A stretch of 61,806 nucleotides of DNA, the filler included, from Sphacelaria rigidula (lineage: Eukaryota), in NCBI GenBank assembly GCA_964200075.2. It is 5 parts of 5 records of this genome, joined end to end, with 100 filler letters (N's around TTAATTAATTAA, not from the genome) between each part and the next. Parts side by side here need not be neighbours in the genome. Positions count along the whole stretch, not along the records: positions 37,147 to 49,426 come from CAXNAA020003928.1; 4 more parts are not named here. The stretch is one strand, 5' to 3'. Shown piece after piece: positions 24,666-60,400 of this stretch. The first letter of the stretch is position 1. Each line of letters opens with the position of its first letter. A program made the translations under genes and the position numbers. Below the pieces are notes generated by a model that was given only the letters and a program-made list of their open reading frames with translations, made no database searches and was not told the DNA's origin.

Positions 24666-24765
24666 NNNNNNNNNNNNNNNNNNNNNNNNNNNNNNNNNNN
24701 NNNNNNNNNTTAATTAATTAANNNNNNNNNNNNNNNNNNNNNNNNNNNNNNNNNNNNNNNNNNNN
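24666..24765. other. Artificial contig linker
   Basis: N44-TTAATTAATTAA-N44. Confidence 0.98.
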
Positions 24766-35081: not shown

Positions 35082-35300
35082 GAGGGAGGGGGGGGTGGGG
35101 TGGGGGAGTTCAACGAGAGCTATCGCCGTACTAAAGTCAGAACGTCCATACGGAGTGAGTTCGTTTACGATGGTGGCTACCGTACCATCACATGTCTGCT
35201 TCAGATGACACGTGAAATGTGTATAGCGTCGACGATGCGGACAGCAACAGGACCGACTATGCTCCAGTAAACGGTTTCGCATGGTGTCTGGCCAGCACGC

Positions 35301-35508
35301 TGTAATGCGTGAGAGGACCGCGTGCGTTTTGGACCGCATCGCAGATTACAACACCATAGGATCGACGTTTTTTAAGCCTGCTGGGCCAGTCCCTGCAAGG
35401 ACCGCGCCCCCGACCCTAACCAACCCTAACCCTAACCCCAACCCTAACCATGGGGGTGTTTAAACTTTGATGCTGTCCAAAAAGCACGTGGTCCGCTCGC
35501 GCAGTACA
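35301..35508. mobile_element. MITE with TGTA...TACA termini, ~55-bp TIRs, 4-bp TSD (ACGC) and internal (CCCTAA)n
   Basis: TIRs are shared with 46881-48016. ACGC at 35297-35300 and 35509-35512. Telomere-type repeats at ~35413-35449. Confidence 0.8.
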
Positions 35509-36860
35509 ACGCGCTGCAGTCTCTGTAATCTGCAGATTATCTTGATGCGCTTGTTGTCTGTGTGAAGACATGTCGTCGGCAACGGGTAATGATGTTCCTA
35601 CCAAGAAATAAACGACCGCTGAAGGAACAACGGAATTCCAGGTAGATGACAGTGGTCAGCCTTTAAATGTGGTACTCACTCAATTGGGATTTTGTTTACA
35701 GACGACTTGTCACCTGAACTCGAGCGTTGAAAAGTCGGTTGGCGTCGTAAAATGGTCCACATCGTGCTCGGAACACATTTCCCAATGTTTTGTTGCGGGA
35801 GCAATACGGAGTAAAACCCCGTTTATCGAGGGGGTGTTATTGACCGCATATGTCTGAAAAACACGTTTTCCGGTCGTGCCGCAATGAATATCGCAAGAAT
35901 AGAAAACATGAAGATATAGGATTGTTTATTATACCGATCGGAATCGGGTCGGTCGAGCGAAAATACCAAAGAGAAAAAACCCGGGGTTGCACACTCGCAG
36001 GACCGCCAACGACCGGTGAGCCCGTATCTCGTTTCAAGATTGGTCACAAGTATTTTTTCCTTCCTCGAAACTTGTGCCCGGTATGCATGTCTCTCAATTC
36101 CCCCAAGTTTGGAATCAAACAGAAACCGTGATGAGTCGTGGAAATCGAAAAACGCGAAAAAATCTCTTCGAATCGAAACTGTTTTGTTTCAAGTTTGACT
36201 ACGATGTTTCCTGATGACTTCAAGACGAATCCGTTTCACACACAGGCATAGAAAGTAGGGGCGGGGAAAGAGCTTCTCCGCACCCGCCATGGATGGTCAG
36301 ACGCGAATCCTAGCTTCATACAAGATGTACTGGCTGGTAAAATCTCTAGCACGAAGAAAATTCAACCAGTGTAATGTCCTGCGTGAGTCCGGGTAGTTTT
36401 TTCGAGCCTCAACTGAGAGCCGCCTCGAAGAAACTCACTGTTCCGCAGTGCTCTCCATTCGCAGGTATTCCACGCGGTTTTCCTTCAGACATTGTTTCTC
36501 TAGTAGATCTGTTCTCTTTCGTCAAACTTACATGCTGCTTTCCTATTTCCCACGGGCGTGAAAAAACTTTGCAATATTCCGCCAGAGGGAAATGGTTATT
36601 GATGCATAGAAAGTTGGCATCTGCTACACGCGGTTTGACGCAACGTCAGTCTCGACAATGCACAACACAGTTGCAAACTACTACAACATCAGTCCGGTGT
36701 TAGTAGGAACAGCGGATCAAGCAGCGGCGGATCCAGGCGGCATCATTGAAGACAAACGGTACGCCTTCAACGTTAATTTCTGACAACTATGTACACTACC
36801 CTGCACAACCTCCGGGTAATGGCGGCTCTGGGTTTTCTTTGTCTCCCGCCACATTCTCAT

Positions 36861-37046: not shown

Positions 37047-37146
37047 NNNNNNNNNNNNNNNNNNNNNNNNNNNNNNNNNNNNNNNNNNNNTTAATTAATT
37101 AANNNNNNNNNNNNNNNNNNNNNNNNNNNNNNNNNNNNNNNNNNNN
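37047..37146. other. Artificial contig linker
   Basis: N44-TTAATTAATTAA-N44. Confidence 0.98.
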
Positions 37147-37217
37147 AAAAAAAAAAAAAAAAAAAAAACGAAAAAAAAAAAGAGCAGGAAGGGGGGGGGA
37201 ATGGGGGGGGGGGGGGG

Positions 37218-37256
<39 letters not shown>

Positions 37257-38884
37257 AGGGGGCTTTGTCTCCGATAACTTTCTGTCGATAGATCCTTGCG
37301 GTCGGAGCCAAATATGACCATGGGTAATATTGGGCGCTCTAAAGAGGACTGGAGATCAAACGATTTGGAGACCGACGACGTACTCGAAGAAATGCACGAG
37401 GACGGAGATCAGGCGGTGGGTCAACAACTGGGAACCTGCGGTTGGACACCGTCGTCCTGTCTGTCCGCGGGTCTGGGCGCGAGCAAAGGGGTATAAGGGG
37501 TGCAATACTTGTGATGAGGAAGCCGAGCCACCTCCTGCCTACCAGCCTGCCTCCTGGTGGAGGGTTGTGAGCTTCGGCCCATCCCACCACCGGTACGAGT
37601 GGATCTCGTGTGCGTGTGGTACTGACATACAATACAGTTTGTCCGTGTTGGGACGAGGCACAGCTTCGCAGATCTTTCAAGGGAAATAAACCCCAAGCAC
37701 AAACGCGCGATAATATAAGCGCACCACACTTGAACACCTGAGTCTAGTCAAGATTGCTTTGATTAATGGCTGTATGTGAACTGATTCCCGCGGAATCCAG
37801 GCGTGGTCACAGGATAAACGTACCCATGGTGAGCAAAACGGAATCTCCTTCCAGGAAGTAGAAGGCGGGGGATAAAAACTGGAATAAGGCGGGTTCTTGT
37901 CGAAGGGGATTTTGCCCCTCATCAAGGCCCCCGTTTCAAGAACGATTTCTCAGGAAGTGCTTCACCTCCTGAAATCCCCTTTTGGAAAGGGGATTTCCGG
38001 ATAACTCGAAGGGGAGCATACGTGTCCCGTTAACAGGGGCACATGCAAACGCTTGCCACACAACTCAACACAATCAGAGGTGCACCTGACGAACTTGGTG
38101 CCCTCGCAAACCAAAAACACAAAGCTCGAGCCGTAGCTACTCATCATCTGATCACATAACGGGGGACCTACTATGGCGGCGAGATGCTCGCGTCATCGCC
38201 ACGGACAGGTGTATCGCCTGCCAACGCTCTGTGCAGGACTGTCGATACTATGCTCGGCATCGACCGTTGAGGGGTACGACGGCTTGGTCTTGCCCGAGAC
38301 ACCCCGTCAGCCAGCCTCGCTCCACAGGACCCGCGAACAGCATCAACGTCACACAACGTCTTTCACACGCTGACATACGACTTATTGTTGTTGTTGTTGA
38401 TGTTGTCTTCACAGTCAAAATTGTTCCGATATCTGCGCGGTACATTCGTACTGGGCATATGATGCAGACGCCTTCCGTGGTCGCAGGCTAACAAAAACCA
38501 AAAAACCAATTGAACCCAGATTATGACTCACAAAACGCGATGCAAGCAGAACAGGGATACACAATAAAGAAGAGAGTACAGATGGCTAACCTCAGAAGAT
38601 CCGGTTTTCCAACTCGACGCGCGACGCCGAGTAGAAATGAACATGAGGTCCGATCACGGGCGAGACTCAAGGCCCCATATGACGCCAACCAAAGAAGTAA
38701 GAATCGCAAGGTTCCATCTTTCGACCTCTCGAGGGATAGCCATACGTACAAGCATACCAGGTGTATCAAGACAAGAGCTGGATGACATAAAGACACCCCT
38801 CATCGGGGGAATTCACCCCTTCCCCCCCCACTTCTCTCGACCGTCGCGACTATGCGACTACGAGAGAATTTCATCGGCTCCCAC

Positions 38885-39010
38885 CTGAATATGCGACAAC
38901 CTCGCACGGTTGTGGAGAGTGGTGGCCAAATCAGGGTGCGCCAGGGCAAGATCCTTTTCCCGGATCGATTGGCACCGCTCGTACAGTCGCGCAGCCTCGT
39001 CAAACTTGCC
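38885..39010 (-). CDS. Single-TPR exon (126 nt, phase 0-0), cassette 4
   Basis: CTGCAG|GKFDEAARLYERCQSIREKDLALAHPDLATTLHNRARLSHIQ|GTGGGA; a 42-aa kinesin-light-chain-type TPR. Confidence 0.85.
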
Positions 39011-39330
39011 CTGCAGAGTCGTGCACGACGCAACAACACCCTGCAACTGTCAACGTCGAATATACTACGGCGGCGTATGGTGAGTGAAGGCTCGACGCTA
39101 TTTCTCTATGTTTCGGGCGACGGGTACGTTCTATAGCTGGCCATCGCTGTCTGTACGGTGACAACCGTACCGCACCTGAAATCGACGGTTCACAGCTACG
39201 ACGGCTTGGCCTCGTCGCTCCGGTGCAACGATGGCGTGCAGAACCAACGCAACAATACCAACATCACACAAAGTTTCCCACGCGCTGACTACAGCACACA
39301 CGACCACGAGACATTTCTATCGGCTCCCAC

Positions 39331-39456
39331 CTGACCATGCAACAACCCCGCATGGTTGTGGAGAGTGGTGGCCAAATGAGGGTGCTCAGGGGCCAGAACC
39401 GCTTCCTGTATCGCCTGGCACCGCTTGTACAGTCGCGCAGCCTCGTCATACTTGCC
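39331..39456 (-). CDS. Single-TPR exon (126 nt, phase 0-0), cassette 3
   Basis: CTGCAG|GKYDEAARLYKRCQAIQEAVLAPEHPHLATTLHNHAGLLHGQ|GTGGGA. Confidence 0.88.
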
Positions 39457-39748
39457 CTGCAGTGCAGTACACCATGCAGCAACACCCTGCAACTGTCACC
39501 GTTGGGTCTACTACGGCGGCGAGACGCGCGCGCCACACCTCGCCAAGGGTATGCAGCTGACCAACGCTGTCTGTACAGGGACAACCGTACCACACCCGAC
39601 ATCGACGTTTCATAGCTACACGACTTGCCTCGCCGCACGAAATCTCTGGGGCGACGATGGCGTGAGGGACCAACGCAACAACATCAGCACTACACAACGA
39701 TTCTTGCACGCTGACATGCCACTACGAGAGAAAGACAATGCTCCCCAC

Positions 39749-39874
39749 CTGAGCTTGTACCACGTTCGCATGATTGTTGAGAGTGGTGGCCAAATCAGAG
39801 TGCGCCGGGCCAAGAACCGCTTCCTGTATCTCCTGGCACCGCTCGTACAGTCGCGCAGCCTCGTCAAACTTGCC
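39749..39874 (-). CDS. Single-TPR exon (126 nt, phase 0-0), cassette 2
   Basis: CTACAG|GKFDEAARLYERCQEIQEAVLGPAHSDLATTLNNHANVVQAQ|GTGGGG. Confidence 0.88.
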
Positions 39875-40168
39875 CTGTAGTGCAGTACACCACGCAGTAG
39901 CACCCTGCAACTGTCGACGTCGAATCTACTACGGCGGCGAGACGCTCATGCCACCGCCCCGCACGGGTGTGCGGCCGGCCAATGCTTCATGTGCAGGGAC
40001 AACCGTACCACACCCGACATCGACGTTTCATAGCTACACGACTTGCCTCGCCGCACGAAATCTCTGGGGCGACGATGGCCCACACAACCGGCGAATAATG
40101 TCAACACCACACGACACTGTTCATGCGTGGAGCACACACAACTATGGGAAAATTCTATCGGCTCTCAC

Positions 40169-40294
40169 CTGAGCTTCCAACACTTTCGCACGGTCGTGGA
40201 GCGTGGCGGCGTGATCAGGGTGCTCCGGGTCAAGCACACTTCCCTTCATCGCCTGGCACCGCTGGTACAATAGTTCAGCCTCGGTCAACTTGCA
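40169..40294 (-). CDS. Single-TPR exon (126 nt, phase 0-0), cassette 1
   Basis: TTGCAG|CKLTEAELLYQRCQAMKGSVLDPEHPDHAATLHDRAKVLEAQ|GTGAGA. Confidence 0.82.
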
Positions 40295-40987
40295 CTGCAA
40301 TTTAGTACACGTCGCACAAGCATGCTGCAACAGTCAAGTTATCTAAAACAGGTACCCTTTTGTGTTGTGAACGAAAAAGGGTCGTGCACTTTACGGTTTG
40401 GAGCGTGGCGGTTCAAGCGGGTTTGGCACGTCCAAACAAGGTTTCAGCCCCTGCGTCACGCCCAACATGCTAGGTCAACATGCCTGACTTCAGCTTCAAT
40501 ATTCAAGTTCGTACGCAAATTACTCAAACTCGGGTAGAGGAAATACCGAGTTTTTCCTAAAGTTGCCCACCCATGATGAGTGTTGATTCAAGCTTCAACT
40601 GTCTTGTCAAACCGACTTGCACTGTTTCCACCGCTGTCTCTCCCATGGAGTCACATATGTGGCCAGTAGAGTCGCTTATTTTGATAATGCCTACTCGACT
40701 ACTCGTCTACTTGATTACTCGATGATGATGAGTGGCCCTCTGTACTGAAAATGATATCGAAGGCGTGACGAGGTATCAAGAATTAACTGCCGTGGGTGGG
40801 GGCTGGTGAGATGGGGCGCTGGGGCAGGTGGGTTCGTTCACCTGCATGCTTCCTTCATTTTCTTATGGCCATCGTTCGCCCGTACTCCTTGTTGGCTGTG
40901 ATGTAACGTCGCCCATCTGACTGATGGCCATCATTCGCCCATGCATTCAACATAGTATGTAAAGTGACGTGACTAAGTCGCCGACTG

Positions 40988-41236
40988 TCAGGGGTACTCA
41001 ACATGCCCAAGGGGTATTTTGTGCTCTAGTACTACTGAGAGTGCCTACTCAATATTTGAGTAGAGTATTTGAGACCATACTCAACGTATTCGAAATTTGA
41101 GTTGAGTATTTGAGGCCGTATTCGACAAACTCGAAAATATGAGTCGAGGATTTGAGGCCGTACTCGATCTACTCAAACGTCGAGTAGAGTAAATACCTGC
41201 GTATTTTACACGAGTACTCAAAAGTACATACTCCCT
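40988..41236. repeat. GAGTA/TACTC-rich element with ~40-bp internal tandem units (probable MITE)
   Basis: GAGTATTTGAG(A/G)CC(A/G)TA recurs about three times at ~41-bp spacing, with many TACTC/GAGTA inverted words. Confidence 0.5.
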
Positions 41237-41276
41237 TCGACCTACCCTTGGAAGGTTCCAAGGGTGTGACAAATAT

Positions 41277-41513
41277 TGAGTCGTCTGGAAATTACTTGGT
41301 TTTAGTATGATGAGTCGACTCGTGACGAATTAATCCCTAGGCTTTAATTTAGCATTGCACACCAGGCACACGCAGCCCAGACTCGTGGAATGGGGCAAAA
41401 GTTGCGTGGATACCCCTTGGACCAGCGATCCACTTTTTTTCCTTTTTGGGCAATCAGGCCGAAGAAGTCGTGAATTTGGCGACTTTGAGTCGTGATGATT
41501 TGTCCTAACCGTG
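41277..41513 (+). repeat. ~230-bp dispersed repeat copy
   Basis: Matches 12672-12883. Confidence 0.9.
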
Positions 41514-42091
41514 GAAGGTTCGACTGCTGAAGGCAGAGGCGACGGAAGCCCTACTGTACCGATGCATGACGTGGGCCCCACGCCGCAAGCACCACAGGTT
41601 GCTGAGGACGGTGCAGCACCGGCTCCTCCTGCGAGTTATCGGATACCACCGCGTGCATGGCACATGCCGACAGTTATCATACGCCCAGGCCCTCAAGAAA
41701 GTCCGATGTTAAAGTGCTGAAGCCATCGTCCGACAACGGCAACTGCTGTTCGGGGGAGCACTGGCTAGACCACCGGACGAACGAGTACCGAAGCGGCTGG
41801 CATTCGGAACACTCGTGGGGGGGGGAGGATCCAGGACCAGGGTGCCCGGAGAAAAACTGGCTGAAGTGCCTGAGAGACAATTTTCAAGCTTTCGGAGCCA
41901 CGAACGGCTCTACGGACGACAGCCGACAGACGTTTGGAGTTGAAAGTGCCCTCTGGCCTTCGGCAGCGACGAAGGAAGGGGAGATACCACGGCACGCGGA
42001 GGTGCTGCAGGGTGCGGATGAGTTCATACCCTCTTGGGATACGAATGAGGAGGAGGCCAGCCGAATACGTGCAATTAGACGGGAGCTTTGA
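41514..42091 (+). mobile_element. 3' fragment of an RTE-like LINE ORF
   Basis: Manual translation gives KVRLLKAEATEALLYRCMTW...HRLLLRVIG...VRQRQLLFGGALAR..DERVPKRLAFG...GCPEKNWLKCLRDNFQAFG, the typical RTE post-RT region, with a stop and a frameshift. Confidence 0.85.
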
Positions 42092-42195
42092 GAAGAGCAG
42101 GGGGGTGATGAACGAATACGTAGCCAGCTTGTATCGAACTGAACATGGCGGATGTGGCAGGAATCCCCGTAATCTCCCCTTGCCTTTTTTTTTCT

Positions 42196-42469
42196 GAGCA
42201 ATGCTACGGTAGGGGTTGCACTCGTTCAGCGAAAACGTTTCTCGGGGCTGCTCGAGGTGTTGCACGGGTCATTTCGAGAATCGGCACCATTTTTACTTGA
42301 AAAAGAAGGTGACGCCGATTCACGAAAATGCCCCTGCATGCACGCACATCATGTTTCTAGGAGTCCGGTCCCTGGAGATTTGGGTTCTAGAGTAAGCCCC
42401 ATACATTTGGGCACCTACAAAAAAGAGACCTAGACACAAAAACTGCAACCCCCTACCGTAGCATTGCTC
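42196..42469. mobile_element. MITE with GAGCAATGCTACGGTAGGGG TIRs
   Basis: ~25-bp inverted repeats at both ends. Related to 995-1213. Confidence 0.8.
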
Positions 42470-43185
42470 CCTAATAATTGCTAACTTTTTATGCGCCACT
42501 TCCCCGAGGTGGTATGTTGTCATATGGTGATTTTCCTGTTATTCCTGGTATATTCGTACACATGGCTGCCCCTCTAAAGGGACGAGATTAGAACCCTGCG
42601 ATTCGTATCGCTATGGTTGGCTATCTTGGTCCCTGAGTTGGGCGGCCCAATAGGTCCTGCCTCCAGCAGCCCGAATGGTCTCATACAGCATCGGGACTTG
42701 AGAGCCTAGCAGTATCATTTTCCCTCCCTTTTCTTTCTAATTTATTTTTCCTTATGTCCCATTCATTTTTTTGTAACGCGTCTGTGTTAATTTTTCTGAA
42801 TACGATTTTATACCTTGTATTCCTTCCACTCCATGTTGGGGTAGTAGGCCTGTGACCATGAAAGGCGTCCATATCAGATGCCCAGTACAGAATACTGCCC
42901 AAATATCGGAACGATTCTTATGTCAAGACAACAATTACAACTACACACACGGCAACAGGCCGAACCGGGCGCGGGAAAGGTCACCTTAATAGAAAATCTG
43001 TTTTATCAACAAACGCGCCAGATATACCCTACTCCCAGCTAAAGCGTTATATTGCGCACTCTTTTGTTCACGTGCGTACTTCTTCATGTTCTTCGACGTA
43101 CACCTGCACGTCTGTTCTTGTTAAAAAGTATGAAAAGTCTTGTCATCACACGCCCGTACATACAACAGCCGATTATCGAGGTCGA

Positions 43186-43247
43186 GGAAATCAAAACCGT
43201 CGCACGGGAAATCAAAACCGTCGCACGGGAAATCAAAACCGTCGCAC
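43186..43247 (+). repeat. 21-bp tandem repeat x3 (GGAAATCAAAACCGTCGCACG)
   Basis: Direct read. Confidence 0.9.
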
Positions 43248-43260
43248 CCACACCAATGCT

Positions 43261-43527
43261 TCTAGATGTGGTTCCATCCCTTCATCTGCTGGTAGCAATC
43301 GACAACTACTACACACCATGAAATTTGGATTCCGATTACCGAAATTTGGAGGTTTTAGGTGAATAAAAAGATCTCGAGAATTCAAGTGGTCTGGCTGGAT
43401 CACCTAAATTCCCAGAATTTGTTTTTTTTCCTCGGACTCCCAAATTTCTGCCATCGGATCCCAAATTCAATGGCGTGTAATAGTTGGCAATAGCCACCAG
43501 CAGGTGAAAAATGGAACCATATCTTGA
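43261..43527. mobile_element. Imperfect foldback element
   Basis: ATGTGGTTCCAT...TTCATCTGCTGGTAGC vs GCCACCAGCAGGTGAA...ATGGAACCATAT form inverted arms. Confidence 0.7.
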
Positions 43528-45524
43528 CGAATTGGCGTGGATCCGACAATTTTTACTATACGGGTTTTCATCCTCAATGAAAAGCTCGATTCTCAATTTT
43601 GATGATCGGCATTCACACGCTATCGTGTGGAGGATCACCGGGCAGCGGGATCTCATGCGGTCGGGTGACAACAAGACTTTCCCTGCTGGAACTGCGCGAC
43701 AACCACCAGCACGCCACGATTTCTTGGTCGTTGGGCTTTGTGGTCAGGGCATACCCTTTTTTGTCTATTCCCTCTCAACATACTCAGAGTGGGGAATATA
43801 CGTCCTACCAATTCTCCACATATAACATCAGATTATAACTCAAACTTGAGGTGACAATCCCAAACTTACACGCTGCGCCAGCCTACAAACGGAATTGTAT
43901 GTTGCAGGCCGTTCACAGCTCAGTTTTGGGGATGTGTGGAAAATTGCAAGGGCATGATAAAAACACTCATTTGCGAAAAATGTTTTTTTCGCGAGTCAAG
44001 GACATATGAGCGTATACTAAAAAAATCACGGGTAACGCAGTTTCGATTCCTCATGGCCCTACGATTCTTCATACTGAAATTTGTCAGCGGAACTCCAAAA
44101 CCGAGCTGAGGACCTGTGTCAAAGCCCAAAAACGAAATTCAGCTTTTACACATACCGAGCTTCTTCCACTTTTGTTTTCAGTATGCGCTTGCGATACTCC
44201 AAATCAAATCTCGAAGCAAAACTCTGAATATTGAGGTGAGGATCCCAGATTAGTTTTTTCGATGCCTCTGCTCGTAATATATCGAAATGGTATCGAACGA
44301 GTATTTACGCCATATCTCGTTAGATGATGGCTTAGTTCAAGAGGGGGATATCCATCGTTACCCCGTCCTCGGGTAATGTATACATCAGAAATCATCATCC
44401 GCTGTACATATCGCTCAGGGTTTCGCATAGATTTCATCATATGGCGTCCATCCCCGTTCGTCGTAGGATTTATTCGTCATGGCGTTTGATCAACGAGAAA
44501 AACTTACCCACGCTGAGGAGAAGATGGGCGTCTGTCCCCTCCATTAGACGAAAAATAGCATGTGCCGACACCGGCTCAATTCGCCCGCGTCGACGAGATA
44601 CGTTCATATGCTGGCTCTGTCAGTGCATTAATCGTTGATACATCCTTCTCCCCTTCCAATCATGCAGCATGTATCATACGTGCAGCGCTTGTGATGCATA
44701 CGAGTTGACTTGAGCTTAGATGTTTCCTACCTATGCGATCCCCATTGCCATTCATGAGGTGCAAGTAGCTCGTACATTATTGGCATTCATGTTATTATAT
44801 TGGCACTTGTTTGTTTGGTACAGGTTTGTCGGTGGACTTTGTTAAATGGGTATGATGAAGGGTTGGGTACAGGTAGCGTATACGTGCGTGTACTACCACG
44901 AAGATATCAAGATAAGGTGCTGCACTTTTTAGCTGGTGTTTATTGCAGTATAGATTCTCTGAGTCTACTGCCTGACCAGCAGACAGCAGCAACTGCCGAC
45001 AGGGGAAGAGCAGCGGGATGAAACCTCTTGACTGCCGGAGGTGTCGATTTACGGAGGTGTCGATTTACTGAGTCCGCATTATTTTCAGTCCTTCATCAAG
45101 TGAAGGTAATGCCGATTCCACGAATAGATACCTCCGGGGTTCAAAATGTTGGTTGTTCATGATTGCCTGCTGCACTGTCGGGGCTGCGTGGTGCTGCCTG
45201 TGTTGTACTGTCTGTACAGCATCAGAACTACACCAAGAAATTGTTCATGGACATGGGCTGTGTTTGCCTCGTGTTCAATGCATTAAAACCTGGAATTGTC
45301 ATGGGAATAATCGAAATCCGTGGATACGTAAAGGCGAACCAGGTCACAACCAATTGCAACTGAGGTCACAACCCATGGGATGGTATACAACACACGGGCT
45401 TATTTTCACATGCAAAGTGAATGCTAGACTCGCAGTAGACTCTACTTGTTATTCCGAAAATGGTCATTTTCGCTGAGGGCAAGTTAGGACTTGGCCTGCG
45501 ATGTGGTGCCTCAACGTGACCGAC

Positions 45525-46680
45525 CGAAAATGAGCTGATGAGCTACGGGTTGGTGGCTAACCTAAGAAAATCATGCGTAGCTCATTCAGCTCTCATAGCT
45601 CACCCAGGAAGAATATGAGTGGATGAGCTTAACTCGATATACCGCCCGAGGCAAACATGTGTAGCTCGGGCAGCTCTTATAGCTCACCCAGGGAAACACG
45701 AGCAGATGACATCCGCCCGGTAGCTCACCCCGGGAACAAACGCTCATAGCTAACCCACGCCATGTGCTTAGCTAAGCCGGTGTCGCTCATCTTGTTCTAT
45801 TCTTGTTCGATTGGACGACGTAAATTATCATGAAGCTGTGGCTTTCTGCCTCGCGTTTTGCGGTGGGGGGACAAGAGCTCTACACGAATCCTCGTTCGCA
45901 TGGTCGACTGGTTCAAAACATGACAAAGATTCGCTGTCTTCAAAAACAGGCCAATTTATCCCTTTTGGCCGCTTGGCCGCGAGGGTACCAGTCCATCTGG
46001 TCATGAACACTTTTTTCAAGTGAAATTGAGGCCGATTCAACACATGACCTATGCTCGCCGTCAAAAGGTTTGAGCAATCGGATATTGAATGCGTGTTCAC
46101 TTTTTCCTCCACATCGGTCGCTTGCTGCGGAGGATGCAGATCCGCGGAACCATTTACGACTGAAGCGCCGCTGGAGCTGCTGACTTCGGCGATCGCCATG
46201 TGGGGCGGGTTGTGTGTGCGTGTGGTGGCTACGGTACTGGGGATGGCTTCTGATACGATCGATGGTGATGTTTACGAACGGCAAGTCCATCCCTGAATCA
46301 AACGAAAAGCAGGTGTCTACACATGCAACCAATTTCATGCATCAGCGTGCATGAGCATCGGAACAGAAACGACTCCAAAATCGGCATAGCTCCCGTAGCC
46401 ATTCAGCTCAACCAGGGTAGACATGCGCGGATGAGCTATGTCCAGCAGCTCATCCAAAGCAATTGTGCGTGGCTCATGTAACTCTCATAGCTCATCCAGG
46501 ACGAACGTGCGTAGCTCATGCAGCTCTCATAGCTCACCCACGGCGAATATGAGCTGATAGGCTACGAGTTGGTAGCTCACCTAGGGCAAACACGCGTAGC
46601 TCATGTTGCTCTTAAAAATCACCCAGGGAAAACATGCGCAGCTCATGCAGCTCTCATAGCTCACGATGGAGCTACGCTGG
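45525..46680. mobile_element. Non-autonomous element with (T)AGCTCA-rich ~40-bp repeat clusters at both ends
   Basis: Units like CATGCGTAGCTCATGCAGCTCTCATAGCTCACCCAGG cluster at 45525-45790 and 46385-46680 around a unique core. Termini not resolved. Confidence 0.5.
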
Positions 46681-46880
46681 AAAAGAAGTTCGAGCTACGA
46701 GTACAGGGAGTTGATCTGTCCGACATGTGGAAACCTTCAAGTAACATTTAGCATGAACAACTACACATCGAAGGACAACGTGCGATTATGCCATTCAGTA
46801 ACGTCAGTTCACAGGACCGCATGGCAGGTTCACCGTGATCCTACAAGCAGGATCATAAGCCGGAAACGCCTAGACAACGT

Positions 46881-48016
46881 TGTAGTGCGTGAGAGGACCG
46901 CGTGCTTTTTGAACCGCATCGGAATTTGAACACCCCAGGACCGAGGTGTCGGGAGGATCGCACGAACGCCGTCGATGCAAGGACCGCGCACCGAGCAAAC
47001 CTGGGCCGCGCATTCATCTAGCCAGGGGTGGCGAGACCAGGCGACGTGATTGGAGCGACACGACGACGACGTAGCGTGCCTCGAGAGGGAGGAAAGCGGG
47101 GATTCCAACACTGTAAACGTCAGGCACCAATAACTCACGGGGGGGTCACTCTTGCATGTGGATTGTGGTAGGAAAGACTTGGCAAGAGTGTATTCAAGTG
47201 ACTTGCCGGCAACCACCACGTCGTCATGACCGCATCGACGAACTAATGCTCGACACTCCAGGGTAACACGTGCCGATACGACCCATTTGCTCGCTGCTTA
47301 CAGGTACCATATACCGAGACGACAGATCTGCCTGGTACTTGCAAGTACTGAAATGAGGTTTACATGCGGTTCACTTTGTCATTCAATGCAGCTGAATCCA
47401 ACGTAAAGACACAAGTGAAGACCAAGTCACTGCGATGTCATCTCCGCGGAGGTGAAGAGGGTTGGTCGTCTTGACTTGGGTATTTACCTTGAAGACGCCT
47501 TGAATGACAAAATGAACCGCATGCAATCCACATTTCAGTACTTGCAAGTACGGAACAGATGGGTCGTCTCGGTATCTGGTACCTGGACGTACGGAGCAGA
47601 AGGGTCGGTTCGGCATGTGATCTCGGTGGATACCGCGCAGACGGGTTGTCTCGGCATTTGGTATTCCAAGTGCCGAGCATCAGCTACAGTCGATACGGTC
47701 ATACTGACGTGACAGGTGCCAACACTTTCCTGAAATAAAGTAGTGTCACCTGTCTCCCACCACAGCTCACATGCGACAGTGACTCTCACGTGAGTTACGG
47801 GATCATCACTAGTACAGTCTTGAAATCCCCGCTTTCCTCCCTTTCGAGGCACGCGACGTCGTCGTCGTGTCGCTCCAGTCAAAATGCACCCCCCAGGTTT
47901 GGTCGGGGCGAGGTTCTTGCATTGACGACGTCCGCGGGGCCCTCCCGACGCGTCGGTCCTGGGGTGTTCCAATCCCGATGCGGTCCAAAAGGCACGCGGA
48001 CCTTCCATGCATTACA
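46881..48016. mobile_element. 1136-bp whole-length foldback DNA transposon derivative, TGT...ACA termini, 4-bp TSD ACGT (Ginger-like)
   Basis: ACGT at 46877-46880 and 48017-48020. The arms are imperfectly complementary to a centre near CTCCGCGGAG (47442-47451). Confidence 0.85.
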
Positions 48017-48531
48017 ACGTGCCGACCACGCACCGCCAGGTGCGTTTACGCTACGGACAATTAGGAATATGAGCACAAGAGCCATTGGTCGGTACTTACC
48101 GTGGCTAGTGCTGCCATGTGCCTCACCTCGTGCTGTGATGATCACTGACTCGAGCGCTTGCTCTCCCGATGCTCTTTTGCCCCGAGTACCTGACGTGAGA
48201 GCTGTTGTTGCTTATTGTGGGAGCAGGCTGTTCAAAATAGTTGTGTCTACGAACAGAAGCCGACAGCATGAGCGGGGGAATTGCGGGGTTTTCGATTATT
48301 CTAGGAAAGTTACTGAGAACGTTTCCCGTGATTGAAAAAAGGTAAATTGTTCCGAGTTCACATTTTCATAACTGTGAGCGTACATATTGCGGATCTTTCG
48401 CCGACAGTAGGTGACAGGGCAGTGTTCTTCGCGCTACTCTCGTACTCGTCTCCCTCATCTCTTTTGACTAAATTTCCTACGTGTGGCCAGTAATCATGAA
48501 TGACTTGAAACACATCTTCTCACTTACTTAA

Positions 48532-49426
48532 CCCTTTTGGGACTGGCAATGGAAAAGTGCTGATTTGGAGGTGCTGGTTTTGAAGGACATATGGTTGATA
48601 GTTTTCAGCTCCTACACAGCACTATTTAGCCCAAGGCGTGTTTTTCAGACCCGCGCAAGTAAAACGTGGAAAAAAAGAAGGTTCTCTATTTTTGACTGTG
48701 CCGAAGAACGTTTTTTGTTCAATCCATCGGACTTTTTCAGCACCGCCAGTATGTGCGGAGGCGTGCTGACCTACAACAAACATAGTGCGGTGACAGTCTC
48801 GTACGACATTGTTCCCCAAGTACTGGGCCCACCCCTCTCAGTCATGCAGGCCATCCACACACAAGCATGGATGCCGCTGAGGAAAATATAGATACCGCTG
48901 AGGAAAATATAGAAATCATATCCGTGGTACAGACAGTGTTCCCGGGACCGCCAAATACAAAACGTGGGTCTGATATCGTGAAAGCGGTAAGCGATGAGGA
49001 CCGGAGCTTCTTTGAGCAGCTTGCACAAGAAGACCGTGGGGCAGCTGAATCGTCCACAACGCCAACGGCTTGGCGCCAAGCTGTGAGACCGTTTGGAAAC
49101 TGCGCTTATGAGTCCTTGTTGACGGCAGCACTGGGCCGCAATACGCCGGTGCCCGATGATGGGCGCATGGCACAGCTCGTCGCGAAGCTGAAAAAAGCCG
49201 TATGCGAGTACATGATGCAATCCATATGCGGTACTGTACTGTACAACACCCCTGACGAGGAGGCAAATCAAGACGGACATGGCATCACGGATTACGGCAG
49301 AAACATGGCGAGGCACCTGTTTCTCACGGACACGTACGAACACGAGCCGGATATCGAGGTGGAGAGGGACACCATCGGATGGTTTAGGAGGCATCTGAAG
49401 TGGGTGGCAGAACGTGAAGGTCTGTG
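48532..49426 (+). mobile_element. Left end of a piggyBac-type element (TTAA|CCCTTTTGG), truncated by contig end
   Basis: TTAA at 48528-48531. The first ~170 bp are homologous to the first ~170 bp of the complete MITE at 59466-59933. Confidence 0.7.
48867..49426 (+). CDS. OTU-like cysteine protease domain protein (3' truncated)
   Basis: Open to the contig end. VRPFGNCAYESLLTA resembles the OTU Cys loop (V.xDGNCxFxAl) and is followed by LKKAVCEYM (cf. LR..v..ym helix). The His motif is not reached. Confidence 0.55.
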
Positions 49427-49526
49427 NNNNNNNNNNNNNNNNNNNNNNNNNNNNNNNNNNNNNNNNNNNNTTAATTAATTAANNNNNNNNNNNNNNNNNN
49501 NNNNNNNNNNNNNNNNNNNNNNNNNN
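49427..49526. other. Artificial contig linker
   Basis: N44-TTAATTAATTAA-N44. Confidence 0.98.
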
Positions 49527-53147: not shown

Positions 53148-53859
53148 TCTATTAATCCATCGTTTTTTCAAGTGATCAAGTTTCGACTCGCCAGCGACCG
53201 ATTGGGAGCAAGCTCCGTTCACCCCGCGGTATGCGCGCCAGCCACACATGAATCCTTTCAGCATGAGAAGGGCGATGGTATGCCGACGCGACACATCTGT
53301 GTGGATAGGACGAGCACACAGCACGCTCTCCAGACGTTCAGATGAACAGTCAAATCTGCAACGACAGTACTGCGAGCGCTGCTCCATTCGTCATCTTCTT
53401 CACATCTCACAAGCTTTTTGCTACACTAGTCTAGTTCATATTGCCAGTGGTTAGAAACACCATAGTCCGAGGTTGTCTCAATCTGCCGTTTGTAGTAGTC
53501 CTTATAGGCCCACCCTCGTTTCTCCCCGTTGTTGTCTAAAGGTGATGCTGTGGGTGTTTTTCGGTCGACTGTTGTTTTGCACGGCGTGTGTGCAGGTTTT
53601 GTACGGCATTTGTTTCACCCATGATTTCAGGTTCAACCCAAACACATGTAGCATTTCGAGACCGAGAGGGCAAGTGTTATCGGGCATGAATTTTTCCTCG
53701 AGAGCCATGTGATAACTTATTTAGATGAAGGATGGTAGCTCGTCGAAGCATAACATTGATGATTCCAAAAGTTGAAGTTTTCTCCCTGCAGCTGACCGTC
53801 CTCTCTTGTGACAGTTCCTCCCCGATATCCCCATCGTTTGTTTTGGTCTGTCCAGAACT

Positions 53860-56800
53860 ATGCTGTTCAGGATCAAGATCGCATTACGAGAGACACTGGA
53901 GAAACGCGGGGGGGGCATGGAGAATCTCCTTGCACGTACTTCTCTGCCGTCACCAAAGCTTTCTGGAGTGCCAGCGGGTGTTCCAAAAGCGAAGGGCTGG
54001 CATGTCGTGCGCAACGCGGTGGTGGACGACGTATACAATCACTTTGTCGCCGAGGGCAGTCCGTGGATGGCGGGGCTAGTGGGTTGTAGCGGGTCAGGTA
54101 AGACCACCACTGCGGCCATGGTGGTTGGACATACGATGGGTGTGGTCCGATCCCTGGACGGGGAGACACAGCAGCAGGCTCTCGAGCGGCTGAGTCGAGT
54201 GCGGGCCCTGTTCTCAGATGGCGTGGTGTGGCTCCGCGTGGGTAGGGATGCGGCCGAGCGTCTGCCAGGTTTATTGCGGAACCTGGCGCAGATGGTGTAC
54301 GAGAACGTGCTGCGCTGCAGGGGCTATCCCCCCAGGCAGTCGCCGACCGATCCCAAGAACGGCACAGCATATGTCCGAGAGGCTATGGTTACGGGCTTGA
54401 ACCGCCAAGGTCTGCACTGCCTGCTTGTGGCGGACGACGTGTGGGAGTCGGAAGTTGTGCAGGAGTTTCGGAAGACCGGCATGCGGGTGCTGCTCACGAC
54501 CCGAGATTCACTTCTGGTAGATAACGCCGGGGGAAGAGTAACCATGGTGGAGCGGCTGAGGAGGGAGGAGGCGGAGGCGCTGGTGGCCAGTGCCGCCGAG
54601 CTTCCTGAGGGCGCTCATTTGCCTGAACCTGTGCACGAGTTGTTCGAGCTGTGCGACTACATGCCCATGTACGTGGAGTCCGTGGCAAGGTGGACGGTGG
54701 TGAACGGGAGGAACGATGAAGCTTCATGGTCTAAGGTGATTTCTGTCATCCGGGGCCATGTGGAAAACGTTCAGGAAGAAAAACACCGTGGTCATGATGA
54801 TGGTGTCAGCGCATATAGAGACGCCATTGCGAAGAAACGCATGGCGGTTCTCCAAGCCGGTTTCGAGTGCCTTGGGGCCGAGGATTCGCAGAGCCGGTGG
54901 CTCTACCTGGCCTTGGCAGTGTTGCCATGCGATCACGATTTTAAGGTGTATGAGGCTTGCGTGTTGTTGTTCGGCCACAAGGACTCAGAGCACGAACTGG
55001 AGCAGGCTGGGCAGGCGGTGGCAGCTTTGGAGCGGTGGGCGATCATCACCGCGGCAGGACCTGGTCTGTTTCGCATGCACGGTGCTCGTTCAAAATTCGC
55101 TAGGCGGACTTTTGTGGATGCTCGTGAGGATATATGCCGAGACGTTGTGGAGAGATGGCAAAACTATTTATCCACTTTGGAGGTGGTGCGGTCAGTTGAA
55201 GTATACGGCCTTCTGGGTCTGTGGCAGGCGGTTGAGCTCGTCGGGGGGAAACGGATGCGTCAGTTGCAACCGTACGATTCTGTGCTGTTTGCGCTAGACT
55301 CCTCAGATCCGTTGTATTTCCGTTCGGTAGAGGCTGTGACAAAGCTGTATAACGCGGACTATGATCTTAATGGTGCTCAGGCCGTGATGCGGGAGGTATG
55401 GGAACGATGCGAGGGCAACCCGGAGGTGAATTTGCATGCTTCTCTCACTGCCCTCTGGTACTGTGAGCTGTCGGTGAGAGACCGAGATCTAGTGGAGAGT
55501 CAGCGTTTTCGAGATTCAATGGAACCGTTGGTAGACGTCGCAAAAAAGCGGTGGAGATACGATAGCCGAGCCGCTGCTACTTGTGAGTATTGGCAATCCC
55601 TTTACACGCTTGGTTCGTGTTACCATACGTTGGAGCGAGTGGATGAAGCTGAACTGTGGTTGAAGCGGGCGCTGCAGGTAGCGGAGGAAGCGAACCTCGA
55701 TGCTGACTCCGCAAAGGTTTCGGACACACGGTTAATGCTACCGGAATGTGCAAGGGAATCTGGACGATTGCAAGAAGCGGAAGTTTTGTTTCGCCAGTCG
55801 CTGGAGAGCAAAGAGGCTAGGCTAGGGAAGGGTGCTGCACCTGTGACGCTAGGGCTGTATAAGCTGGCGAGTTGTTCGACTCAACTGGACCGGGCGAGAG
55901 ACGCGGAATCATTGTTCCGGCGAGCCCTGGCGATCGCTGAGGCGAGGTTGGGGACGGACGATGTGACGTTGGCCTCCACTTTAACTGAACTGGCCACGTG
56001 TATGACTCAACTGGACCGGGCGGAGGTAGCGGAGGCGTTGTTCCGGCGAGCCCTGGCGATCAAGCAGGGGAGGTTGGGGAAGGAGGATGTGCAGTTAGCT
56101 TCTACGCTGCACGAATTGGCCAGGTGTTTGACTCAACTCGATCGGCCGGGGGAAGCAGAGACATTGTTTCGGCGAGCCCTGGCGATCAAGCAGGGGAGGT
56201 TGGGGAAGGAGGGTGTGCAGTTAGCTTCTACGCTGCACCAGTTGGCCAGGTGTTTGACTCAACTCGATCGGGCGGGGGAAGCGGAGGCGTTGTTCCGGCG
56301 AGCCCTGGCGATCATGCAGGGGAGGTTGGGGACGGAGGATGTGCAGGTAGCGCATACGCTGCACAAGTTGGCCAGGTGTTTGTCTCAGCCGGACCGGGAG
56401 GGGGAAGCAGAGACGTTGTTGAGGCGGGCTCTTGCGATTGAGGAGGCGAGGCTGGGGGAGGAGGATGTGCAGGTAGCATACACGCTGCACCAGTTGGCCA
56501 GGTGTTTGACTCAACTCTATCGGGCGGAAGAGGCGGAGGTGTTGTTCCGGCGAGCCCTGGCGATCATGCAGGGGAGGTTGGGAGAGGAAGATGTGCAGGT
56601 AGCTCATACGCTGCACGCCTTGGCCCGATGTTTGACTCAACTCGACCGAGCGGGGGAAGCAGAGACGTTGTTCCGGCGAGCTCTGGCGATCAAGGAGGCG
56701 ACATTGGGAAAGGAGGATGTGCGGGTAGCTTATACGCTGCACGAGTTGGCCAGATGCCTGACTCTACTCGACCGGGCGGGGGAAGCAGAGGCGTTGTTCC

Positions 56801-57471
56801 GGCGAGCCCTGGTGATCAAGGAGGCGAGGCTGGGGACGGAAGATGTGCAGGTAGCGCACACGCTATACGAGTTGGCCATGTGTTTGACTCTACTCGACCG
56901 GGCGGGGGAGGCAGAGGCGTTGTTCCGGCGAGCTTTAGCGATCAAGGAGGCGACATTGGGGACGGAGGATGTGCAGGTAGCAACTACGCTCTACAAGTTG
57001 GCCACATGTTTGACTGAACAAGACCGAGCGGGGGAGGCGGAGGTATTGTTCCGGCAAGCTCTGGCGATCGCGGAGACGAGGTTGGGGACGGAGAATATGG
57101 GGGTAGCTTATACGCTTCACGCGTTGGCAACGTGTTTGATTCCACTGGACCGGGCGGAGGAGGCAGAGGTGTTGTTTCAGCGAGCTTTAACGATCAAGGA
57201 GGCGACGTTGGGGACGGAGGATGTGCGGGTTGCAAATACGCTGCACGAGCTGGCCAGATGTTTGACTCTACTGGACCGGGAGAAGGAGGCGGAGGCCTTG
57301 TTTCAGCGAGCCCTGGCGATCAAGGAGGCTAAGTTGGGGACGGAGGATGTGCAGGTAGCGACTACGCTGCATGAGTTGGCCATATGGTTGACTCTACTGG
57401 ACCGGGCGAAGGAGGCGGAGGCGTTGCTCCGGCGAGCCCTGGCGATCAAGGAGGCGAGGTTGGGGACATAA
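53860..57471 (+). CDS. NB-ARC-TPR (STAND/NLR-like) protein; the true 5' end may lie in upstream exon(s), with a likely acceptor at 53870/53871
   Basis: 1203-aa ORF with Walker A GCSGSGKTT (54082-54108), VVWLRVG, Walker B LLVADDVW (54421-54444), VLLTTRD, GLPL-like CDYMPM, MHD-like RMHG (MHG at 55075-55083), then about 14-15 42-aa TPRs. Confidence 0.92.
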   Translation: MLFRIKIALRETLEKRGGGMENLLARTSLPSPKLSGVPAGVPKAKGWHVVRNAVVDDVYNHFVAEGSPWMAGLVGCSGSGKTTTAAMVVGHTMGVVRSLDGETQQQALERLSRVRALFSDGVVWLRVGRDAAERLPGLLRNLAQMVYENVLRCRGYPPRQSPTDPKNGTAYVREAMVTGLNRQGLHCLLVADDVWESEVVQEFRKTGMRVLLTTRDSLLVDNAGGRVTMVERLRREEAEALVASAAELPEGAHLPEPVHELFELCDYMPMYVESVARWTVVNGRNDEASWSKVISVIRGHVENVQEEKHRGHDDGVSAYRDAIAKKRMAVLQAGFECLGAEDSQSRWLYLALAVLPCDHDFKVYEACVLLFGHKDSEHELEQAGQAVAALERWAIITAAGPGLFRMHGARSKFARRTFVDAREDICRDVVERWQNYLSTLEVVRSVEVYGLLGLWQAVELVGGKRMRQLQPYDSVLFALDSSDPLYFRSVEAVTKLYNADYDLNGAQAVMREVWERCEGNPEVNLHASLTALWYCELSVRDRDLVESQRFRDSMEPLVDVAKKRWRYDSRAAATCEYWQSLYTLGSCYHTLERVDEAELWLKRALQVAEEANLDADSAKVSDTRLMLPECARESGRLQEAEVLFRQSLESKEARLGKGAAPVTLGLYKLASCSTQLDRARDAESLFRRALAIAEARLGTDDVTLASTLTELATCMTQLDRAEVAEALFRRALAIKQGRLGKEDVQLASTLHELARCLTQLDRPGEAETLFRRALAIKQGRLGKEGVQLASTLHQLARCLTQLDRAGEAEALFRRALAIMQGRLGTEDVQVAHTLHKLARCLSQPDREGEAETLLRRALAIEEARLGEEDVQVAYTLHQLARCLTQLYRAEEAEVLFRRALAIMQGRLGEEDVQVAHTLHALARCLTQLDRAGEAETLFRRALAIKEATLGKEDVRVAYTLHELARCLTLLDRAGEAEALFRRALVIKEARLGTEDVQVAHTLYELAMCLTLLDRAGEAEALFRRALAIKEATLGTEDVQVATTLYKLATCLTEQDRAGEAEVLFRQALAIAETRLGTENMGVAYTLHALATCLIPLDRAEEAEVLFQRALTIKEATLGTEDVRVANTLHELARCLTLLDREKEAEALFQRALAIKEAKLGTEDVQVATTLHELAIWLTLLDRAKEAEALLRRALAIKEARLGT

Positions 57472-60400
57472 AATATGCAGGTGGCACTGACGCTGCACGA
57501 GTTGGCCAGATGTTTGACTGAACTGAACATGGCGAACGAGGCGGAGGCGTTGCTCCAGCGTGCCCTGGCGATCAAGGAGGCGAGGTTGGGGACGTAGAAT
57601 ATGCAGGTGGCACATACGCTGCACGAGTTGGCCAGATGTTTGACCATACTGGATCGAGCGGGTGAGGCGGAGGCGGTGTTCGGGCGAGCCCTGGTGATCA
57701 AGCAGGACAAGTTGGGGACGGAAGATGTGCGGGTAGCAACTACGCTCTACGAGTTGGCCAGATGTTTGACTAAACTGGACCGGGCGGGGGATGCGGGGGT
57801 GTTGTTGTGGCGAGCTCTGGCGATCAACGAGGCGAGGTTTGGAACGGAGGATGTGCAGGTGTCTTACACGCTTCACGCGCTGGCCATGTGTTTGACTCAA
57901 CTGGACCGGGCGGGGGAAGCAGAGGCGTTGTTCCGGCGAGCCCTGGTGATCAAGGAGGCGAGGCTGGGGACGGAAGATGTGCAGGTAGCGCACACGCTGT
58001 ACGAGTTGGCCATGTGTTTGACTCAACTGGACCGAGCGGGAGAGGCGAAGGCGTTGCTCCAGCGTCCCCTGGCGATCAAGATGGTTAGGTCGGGGTCGGA
58101 GAATATGCGGGTAGCACATACACTGCACGAGTTTAACAGATGTGTGACTCAACTGGACCGGGCGGAAGAGGCGGAGGCGTTGTTCCGGCGAGCCCTCGCA
58201 ATCAAGGAGGCTAGGTTGGGGACGGAGGATGTGCAGGTAGCAACTACGCTGCACGCGTTGGCCATATGTTTGACAGTACTCGACCGGGCGGGGGAAGCAG
58301 AGGCGTTGTTCCGGCGAGCCCTGGCGATCAAGGAGGCTAGGTTGGGAACGGAGGATGTGCAGGCAGCTTATACGCTGCACGAGTTGTCCAGATGTTTGAC
58401 TCTACTCGACCGGGCGGGGGAAGCGGAGGCGTTGTTCCGACGAGCCCTGGCGATCGAGGAGTCTAAGTTGGGGACGGAGGATGTGCGGGTAGCATATACG
58501 CTGCATGAGTTGGCCATGTATTTGACTCTACTCAACCGGGCGGAGGAGGCGGAGGCGTTGCTCCAGCGTGCCCTGGCGATCAAGGAGGTTAGGTTCGGGA
58601 CGGAGAATATGCAAGTGGCACTTCCTCTGCAGGAGTTGGCCAGATGTTTGACTCAACTGGACAGGGCGGAAGAGGCGGAGGCGTTGCTCCGGCGAGCCCT
58701 GGCAATCAACAAGGCGGGATTGGGGACGGAGGATGTGCAGGTAGCTTATACGCTGCACGAGTTGGCCAGATGTCTGACTCCACTCGACCGGGCGGGGGAA
58801 GCAGAGACATTGTTCCGGCGAGCCCTGGCAATCAAGGAGGCGAGATTGGGGACGGAGGATGTGCGGGTAGCTTATACGCTGCACGAGTTGGGCAGATGTT
58901 TGACTCAACTGAACCGGGCGGGGGAGGCAGAGGCGTTGTTGTGGCGGGCTCTTGCGATTGAGGAGGCGACGTTGGGGACGGAGGATGTGCGGGTAGCTTA
59001 TGCGCTGCACGAGGTGGTCACATGTTTGACTCAACTGAACCGTGCGGGGGAAGCGGAGGCGTTGTTGTGGCGGGTTCTTGCGATTGAGGAGGCGAGGTTT
59101 GGAACGGAGGATATGCAAGTGTTTTACACGCTTCACGCGCTGGCCATATGTTTGACTCAACTGGACCGGGCGGGGGAGGCGGAGGCGTTGTTCCGGCGAG
59201 CCCTGGCGATCGAGGAGGCTGGGTTGGGGACGGAGGATATGCGGGTAGCAAATACGCTGCACGAGTTGGCCAGATGTTTGACTCAACTGAACTGAGCGGG
59301 AGAGGCGGAGGCGTTGTTCCGGCGAGCCCTGGCGATCAAGGAGGCGAGATTGGAGACGGCGGATGTAGAGGTAGCACATACACTGCACGAGTTTAACCGA
59401 TGTTTGACCCGACTGGACCGGGCGGAAGAGGCGGAGGCGCTGTTGTGGCGAGCTCTGGTTATTAACCCTTTTGGAACTCACAATGGAAAAGTGATAATTT
59501 GCAATTGACGTTTTATGAGCAAGACATGGCTGATGGTTCACGGCTGAGACGCAACAACATTTACCCAACGCGTATTTCTCAGACCCGTGCGAATGACAAG
59601 TGGAACAAAAAATATTTTCTATTCACCGATGTGCCGTACTAAACCCTGGAGCCCATTGCTGTTTTTTCATGGAATGTTTCATGATGTTTGTTCTAATGAT
59701 TGTCGATGGATACAATTGGACACACTCCATCTGTTGCGTGGTATAATTGGACAAACCTCACCCGACCTCTCCAGGGAAGACACCCGCGGCGTGTGCAACT
59801 GGATTCTTCTCCGGTCTTCCATCATAAAATAGTTGGTGCCTGCCTTTTCTGCTTTCATTTTTTTCTCTCTGTGTCAGGACTTCTCATAATGAGGCGTTTG
59901 GCCCGGGGACAGAAGGGGAGGGTTCCAAAAGGGTTGAGGAGGCAAGGTTGGGGACGGAGGATGTGCAGCTAACAACTACGCTGCACGAGGTGGTCACATA
60001 TTTGTCTCAACTGAACCGGGCGGGAGAGGCGGAGGCGTTGTTGTGGCGGGCTTTGGCGATCAAGGAGGCGAGGCTGGGGACGGAGGATGTGCGGGTAGCA
60101 CATACGCTGCACGAGTTGACCAGATGTTTGACTCTACTGAACCGGGTGGCGGAGGCGGAGGCGTTGTTCCGGCGAGCTCTGGCGATCAAGGAGGCGAGGT
60201 GGGGGACGGAGGATGTGATGGTAGTGCATACGCTCTACGCGTTGGCGAGATGTTCGACTCAACTGGACCGGGCGGGAGAGGCGGGGGCGTTGCTCCAGCG
60301 GGCTCTCGCGATCGCTGGGGCAAGCTTGGGGACGGATGTGCGGGTAGCTTACACGCTTCGCGCGTTGGCGAGATACTCGACTCAACTAGACCGGGCGGGG

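Follow-up and report, generated by a model that had tools for sequence, protein, structure and literature searches.

The window analysed here is a 61,806-base stretch of DNA from Sphacelaria rigidula (assembly GCA_964200075.2), composed of five ~12.28-kb pieces joined by N44-TTAATTAATTAA-N44 linkers at positions 12284–12383, 24666–24765, 37047–37146, and 49427–49526. Because the window is made of joined pieces, distances and synteny across the linkers are meaningless. The fourth piece (37147–49426) is a 12.3-kb contig and carries, on its minus strand, four duplicated tetratricopeptide repeat (TPR) exons with their introns. An earlier reading of this sequence (the original prediction) had assigned these exon cassettes to the architecture that NB-ARC-TPR genes have in brown algae and had noted the lack of a visible NB-ARC partner.

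The four cassettes, t1 (40294–40169), t2 (39874–39749), t3 (39456–39331), and t4 (39010–38885), are each 126 nt in length and encode 42 amino acids, corresponding to one TPR plus a linker. The TPRs are of a type found in candidate immune receptors in brown algae. They are separated by intron 1 (40168–39875; 294 nt), intron 2 (39748–39457; 292 nt), and intron 3 (39330–39011; 320 nt), with a start-to-start spacing of 420, 418, and 446 nt from t1 to t4. AG acceptors and GT donors are found at all eight cassette borders, the acceptors being ttgcag, ctacag, ctgcag, and ctgcag directly before the exons and the donors gtgaga, gtgggg, gtggga, and gtggga directly after them. The cassettes begin and end in phase 0, and therefore any of them can be kept or skipped without a change of frame. 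A variable string reads HDRAKV in t1, NNHANV in t2, HNHAGL in t3, and HNRARL in t4. The number, length, and phase of the exons, their content of one TPR each, the 418–446-bp spacing, and these variable residues all agree with the original prediction, the strand being minus.

The Pfam family TPR_12 (PF13424) matches the four corresponding stop-to-stop frames, with E values of 1.2e-4, 8.5e-9, 1.4e-8, and 3e-7. Three of the four cassettes reach the gathering cut-off of this family (30.1 bits), with scores of 35.9 (t2), 35.2 (t3), and 31.0 (t4); t1, with only 22.7 bits, lies below it. The most diverged copy is likewise t1, which is 71–74% identical to t2–t4, these being 82–85% identical to one another. 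Homology extends through the introns, as had been predicted along with the sequence motifs quoted for them. Aligned over their length, the three introns are 77–80% identical (intron 1 is 80% and 77% identical to introns 2 and 3, respectively), intron 3 having extra indels. Within the window, a 25-nt intron-core pattern is confined to the three introns, each of which has it (100 shuffles give an expectation of 0), and a 206-nt unit is present in four copies with 74–82% identity. The cassette pattern is far beyond chance. In metagenome contigs, the intron-core pattern had no match. The introns are no better conserved than the exons, which points to tandem duplication of whole ~420-bp exon-plus-intron units followed by joint drift. 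We conclude that the four units are genuine NB-ARC-TPR-type exon cassettes that arose through this duplication.

The last 30 nt of each intron (40295–40324, 39875–39904, 39457–39486, and 39011–39040, minus strand) are open in the frame of the exon, starting from a second AG (ttgcag), and encode a helix-like stretch (for example, GVAAWCTALQ). In tblastn, this stretch is aligned with the final part of the TPR before it in relatives. These open intron ends may represent former coding sequence that was intronised, or else an alternative 3' splice site. Splicing at this earlier acceptor (ttgcag followed by GGTG), 30 nt ahead of each exon, would give 52-amino acid exons; we considered it and rejected it, as the joints listed are at the 126-nt sites.

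Eight public sequencing runs contain the stretch, and contigs of X1, X5, X6, and X7 (the last three all from one study) were compared over 37260–49426. X1 behaves as genomic DNA, with 30 of 30 bins covered, and X5–X7 appear to be RNA, as judged from splice joints that X1 lacks. The joints described below are among the 15 listed out of 44. Contig depth is taken as a hint of repetition only, being neither copy number nor expression, and stretches uncovered in X5–X7 (e.g., 44162–45379) are not used as evidence, save where a joint spans them.

Intron 2 is removed exactly as predicted. Contigs of X5, X6, and X7, and not of X1, join 39455 to 39748 (cut +1), with 292 nt skipped. The same three runs, and again not X1, have contigs that join 39455 to 40168, with 712 nt skipped, such that t1 is connected to t3 and t2 is omitted. 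In X5 only, one contig joins 39009 to 39748, skipping 738 nt, such that t2 is connected to a t4-type start and t3 is omitted; this joint has 24 nt on its shorter side and is absent in X1. The t1 exon, which is found with 0 differences in contigs of X5, X6, and X7, is joined in all three of these runs, and not in X1, to an upstream exon that we call e0. This joint (40294 to 48127) skips 7,832 nt, has 120–122 nt on its shorter side, and has ends CT..AC on the plus strand, equivalent to GT..AG on the minus strand. As the splice joints are absent from X1, they do not come from DNA retrocopies in the X1 sample. The cassettes are spliced at the predicted sites, and t2 or t3 is left out in some molecules. 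The contigs that contain e0 stop ~21 nt into t3. The t1 and t2 exons have their last 8 nt in common, such that the t1-to-t3 and t2-to-t3 paths would merge at about this point in a 31-mer graph; contigs ending there would fit both joints being real. Junctions at the predicted sites, with skipping, were what the original prediction had proposed to look for, and its contrary outcome, that no transcripts use these sites, is not what these runs contain.

These data also bear on the idea that the array is an artefact, either a chance pattern of open frames or a repeat collapsed or expanded in assembly. The contig does have homopolymer runs at its end, and repeats lie on its flanks. However, the copies differ at 15–29% of exon positions, so that they are no collapsed repeat; X1 contigs of ordinary depth (66.5–67.3) match 38987–39474 with 0 differences and 40032–40516 with 3; and the RNA-like contigs use the splice sites, while the TPR_12 matches are significant. 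We regard an artefact as extremely improbable.

The upstream exon e0 (48246–48127, minus strand) is 120 nt in length and has the acceptor ttcgtag and the donor gtgagg. In the phase-0 frame of the TPRs it contains two stops, the junction being 15 nt beyond one of these. Only one of its frames is open, and this one continues into t1 in the wrong frame and reaches a stop after three codons. With its stops in the frame of the TPRs, e0 is not a coding partner for them. The first ATG of the joined e0 and t1 sequence is an in-frame ATG in t1 (40249–40247), from which a product of 161 amino acids is predicted with all four cassettes, and one shorter by 42 amino acids for each cassette skipped. This length applies to an unused t4 donor and includes the eight codons that the frame then reads beyond t4, to a TAG at 38860–38858.

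A contig of X5 has the final 25 nt of e0 immediately ahead of the first base of e0 (donor 48127 joined to acceptor 48246). The window contains no other e0. The arrangement reflects either another identical copy of the exon, on the upstream side and outside the contig, or a back-splice (circular RNA).

Homology among the units breaks off on both sides of the array. Upstream of t1 it reaches only ~42 nt into the long intron that separates e0 from t1 (48126–40295; 7,832 nt). This intron contains repeat families at ~40914–41725 and 45380–47003 and an imperfect inverted repeat at 46877–48020. Very many X1 contigs fall on its repeat bins, a hint of repetition, and these repeats have matches in other pieces of the window. 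On the downstream side, the intron after t4 is normal for ~34 nt and is then interrupted by a ~468-nt insertion (38850–38383, minus strand). The tail of this insertion is rich in CAA, and 9 nt on either side (38859–38851 and 38382–38374) are a likely target-site duplication. The rest of the fourth unit-type intron follows (38382–38160, minus strand), with homology ending ~50 nt before the expected acceptor and fifth exon. Very many X1 contigs fall on bins 38072–38883, and the insertion appears to belong to a highly repeated family; its tail and flanks are suggestive of a retroposon. The X1 contig over 37609–38413 has a depth of 399, as compared with 64–71 for the seven other X1 contigs listed. 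Along with the many contigs on the insertion, this depth marks the downstream flank as repeated DNA, with a hint of several copies. The contig continues for 1.7 kb downstream of t4 and ends in poly-A/poly-G. The four cassettes are a ~2.2-kb fragment of a cassette array in repeat-rich sequence, in which homology breaks inside both flanking introns.

One proposal for such a locus is a bank of spare cassettes, which would donate TPR exons to NB-ARC-TPR genes through its homologous introns by germline gene conversion or somatic recombination and would be transcribed only incidentally. The homologous exon-plus-intron units exist, and reservoir loci have been proposed, and somatic recombination speculated on, in two papers on such families (PMC3341825 and PMC11378527). 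More X1 contigs also fall on bins 39290–40101 than on single-copy bins, and near-identical stretches may exist elsewhere. However, the introns are not the better conserved part of the unit, the joints listed for X1 include none that rearrange the array internally, and somatic recombinant loci are unreported in brown algae according to a 2024 paper on ROCO genes (PMC11378527). The cassettes are moreover spliced into RNA and so are not merely stored. We therefore consider a bank of this kind very unlikely. The original prediction had offered a long-intron gene or an orphan bank: the first is supported by the GT..AG joint over 7,832 nt and by the use of the predicted sites in joints between cassettes, and a silent bank is not supported, given that the cassettes are transcribed and spliced. 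Its suggestion that the introns are conserved as recombination substrates is likewise not supported, as identities of 77–80% in introns versus 82–85% in exons t2–t4 are what duplication of whole units gives without extra constraint.

The search for an NB-ARC partner was carried out with 13 NB-ARC-bearing protein queries, consisting of the NB-ARC region of an NB-ARC-TPR gene on the fifth piece of the window, eight NB-ARC-TPR proteins found with that region, and four NB-ARC-bearing proteins found with the cassettes. None of the 13 matches the contig (37147–49426) outside 38861–40333; in tblastn, the NB-ARC region of the fifth piece gave only chance-level matches (E ≥ 7). This search covers the 9.1 kb upstream, from which short diverged exons or other isoforms could escape. 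Pfam families were matched by none of 10 open reading frames (ORFs) upstream, nine of which lie inside the long intron. These results agree with the original finding of no NB-ARC exon in the 9 kb upstream on the contig. NB-ARC-TPR genes carry an N-terminal, in-frame NB-ARC (PF00931), and none was found within the contig. As this domain defines the family, we file the locus as an NB-ARC-TPR-type cassette array and not as a shown NB-ARC-TPR gene.

The relatives of the cassettes do include NB-ARC proteins. A profile search with the four exons matched 111 proteins among 808 candidates. The best two of the 111, P0010 (EukProt) and P0011 (Sphacelaria rigidula), both have PF00931 and TPRs, are 74% and 71% identical to t3, respectively, and have a YERCQ motif in common with it. 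Brown algal TPR proteins without a listed NB-ARC, several of them from Ectocarpus, match the cassettes at 57–64% identity (P0012, P0014, P0015, P0044, and P0070). A search with a single exon, in which 12 candidates yielded one match (a TPR protein whose Pfam list includes kinase domains), was set aside as uninformative on the cassettes. The P0011 gene model (residues ~881–900) reads through an apparent intron start (VKGGVTLSWPCVL...), and this resembles the in-frame reading after t3 (VGADRNVSWSCVL, 39330–39292, minus strand). The likeness is a hint of conservation at the 5' ends of cassette introns.

These relatives bring up the possibility of an intact NB-ARC-TPR gene with its NB-ARC exons beyond the end of the contig, in which e0 would be an alternative, poison, or untranslated region-like exon of some isoforms. 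In keeping with this, the nearest repeats are in proteins with both NB-ARC and TPRs, exon lengths and splice sites are fully preserved, the X5 contig with the e0-to-e0 joint would place at least one more exon before e0, alternative splicing is reported for the family (Teng et al. 2023, as cited in PMC11378527), and 29 of the 44 joints lie outside those listed. Nevertheless, e0, with its stops in the TPR frame, is the only upstream partner in all three RNA-like runs among the joints listed. On the upstream side of t1, the intron is homologous to the unit for 42 nt only, and t1 itself resembles a former internal cassette and not a first TPR. The downstream intron is broken, and none of the 13 NB-ARC queries matches the 9 kb upstream. 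We hold an intact gene to be rather unlikely.

The NB-ARC-TPR genes of Ectocarpus provide the closest published comparison. There are 24 of these, of which 13 have TPR domains made of 42-amino acid exons (Zambounis et al. 2012, PMC3341825). The array in Sphacelaria is like them in its successive 126-nt, 42-amino acid phase-0 exons, its tandem exon-plus-intron units, its usable splice sites, and its family-type TPR sequence, and the assignment to the brown algal NB-ARC-TPR cassette architecture is borne out by the 42-amino acid exons and by the nearest TPRs being in NB-ARC-TPR proteins. The Ectocarpus family also has inactivated TPR exons in introns, clusters with pseudogenes, and five probable pseudogenes among the 24 genes, and its degenerate intronic units on the coding strand and high rates of birth and death (PMC3341825) are a further likeness to this locus. 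Unlike the Ectocarpus genes, the contig here has no NB-ARC match, an upstream exon that is out of frame, only four cassettes, and broken flanking introns. A cassette array without a signalling domain is instead reminiscent of the TPR-only loci of Ectocarpus (PMC3341825) and the leucine-rich repeat (LRR)-only 'reservoir' loci of Saccharina (PMC11378527). The former, termed 'other repetitive TPR loci', came from a genome-wide screen for equal-length phase-0 exon pairs (PMC3341825), and equal-length phase-0 TPR exons without another domain are what is seen in everything visible on the contig and in the part of the transcript observed. LRR-only and TPR-only loci have been proposed as reservoirs, with speculation on somatic recombination (PMC3341825 and PMC11378527). 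Alternative splicing of TPR cassettes is reported to diversify NB-ARC-TPR proteins (Teng et al. 2023, as cited in PMC11378527 and PMC12879055), and in-phase repeat exons are similarly included or skipped here, at a locus without a visible NB-ARC.

Taken together, the most likely reading, which we favour with some reservation, is that the locus is part of a cassette array that lacks an NB-ARC, is transcribed, undergoes alternative splicing, and either encodes TPRs only or is in decay. Exon shuffling and the birth and death of genes, as is typical of the NB-ARC-TPR family, would have brought this piece of array into a position behind a 5' exon unrelated to it. Its transcripts would then give a short TPR-only protein or be non-coding products of a decaying gene, the two outcomes being about equally probable.

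Exon differences are evenly distributed over the three codon positions, and pairwise ratios of nonsynonymous to synonymous change (Ka/Ks) among the cassettes are 0.9–1.6, on 42 codons only. Diversifying selection has been reported for the TPR exons of Ectocarpus (PMC3341825).

Several observations weigh against the reading as an NB-ARC-less fragment, or against plain decay within it. Ka/Ks near 1 fits relaxed constraint and diversifying selection alike, and the latter would suit functional cassettes. All eight splice sites are intact, and neither stops nor indels occur in the 504 nt of exon; the introns, by comparison, have six or more indel events in ~900 nt, which gives a rough Poisson P of ~0.03. 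These intact exons and splice sites are signs of continuing constraint and argue against plain decay. The contig is only 12.3 kb in length and leaves 1.2 kb upstream of e0, such that NB-ARC exons could lie beyond it. The e0-to-e0 joint implies either a back-splice or one or more additional exons farther upstream, so the 5' end seen may not be the true one. The 29 unlisted joints may include the plain t1-to-t2 and t3-to-t4 joints, or one that puts an in-frame exon in the place of e0. The t1-to-t3 and t2-to-t4 assignments rest on 21–24 nt, within which t3 differs from t2 or t4 by a single base. X5–X7 carry the label 'RNA?' as a guess, and their RNA status is itself deduced from joints that X1 lacks.

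The NB-ARC-TPR gene of the fifth piece (53812–61445, plus strand) is large, of the intronless type, and on a different contig from the cassettes. Its ORF at 53812–57468 contains an NB-ARC domain (PF00931, E = 6e-13, amino acids 69–316) that is closest to Scytosiphon and Ectocarpus proteins, with 26–39% identity. After the NB-ARC come ~40 head-to-tail 126-nt TPR_12 repeats (28.5 + 7.3 + 4.0 copies by Tandem Repeats Finder). The frame is interrupted by stops near 57469 and near 57595 and shifts to another after ~59400; the gene is possibly a pseudogene or has unrecognised introns. Of the 24 Ectocarpus NB-ARC genes, 11 are without the exon-cassette structure (by subtraction, PMC3341825), and this gene is alike. 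It has the same 126-nt, 42-amino acid TPR_12 period as the cassettes; unlike them, it has no introns between repeats, has an NB-ARC, and belongs to a different subfamily (~40–48% identity).

Other features of the contig lie apart from the cassettes. Directly after the linker, homopolymer runs of A35 and G65 (37147–37255) are most likely a sequencing or assembly end artefact. Within the long intron, 40914–41725 comprises the bins with the most X1 contigs and contains a 41–42-nt tandem repeat (41047–41167). Similar copies occur in pieces 1 and 2 (85–1, 7321–7602, and 12680–12872), and the region is probably a very abundant transposable element. The imperfect inverted repeat at 46877–48020, a ~1.1-kb self inverted repeat, lies just downstream of e0, and its ends match 35283–35368 and 35453–35511 in piece 3, on either side of a telomere-like ACCCTA run (35413–35449). 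At the far end of the contig, an open frame of at least 213 amino acids on the plus strand (48786–49426) runs off the end and has no Pfam match. RNA-like contigs match it with 7–19 differences and X1 contigs over it have a depth of ~1000, and it is likely to be a member of a multi-copy family. A sigma-70 and terminator scan found nothing; it is irrelevant for a eukaryote.

A more speculative reading, which we think unlikely, is that the locus is a functional stand-alone gene, in which a fragment of an immune-receptor TPR array, taken up downstream of a foreign 5' exon, yields alternatively spliced TPR-only proteins of two to four repeats, or regulatory RNAs, that act on full-length NB-ARC-TPR receptors as decoys or modulators, or in which the cassettes serve as gene-conversion donors to those receptors. 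If this were so, the exon length and splice sites, kept despite 15–29% divergence, would reflect selection.

The architecture itself has already been published (Zambounis et al. 2012; Teng et al. 2023 by citation), and the Sphacelaria locus is a further example of it. What the locus adds is an RNA-supported case in which pieces of shuffled NLR-like TPR arrays can remain capable of splicing, including alternative splicing, and can come to be driven by a 5' exon unrelated to them. Somatic recombination gains no support from it. The locus bears on the birth and death of brown algal receptor families and on the idea that domain-less arrays act as reservoirs, and it leaves the published picture unchanged.

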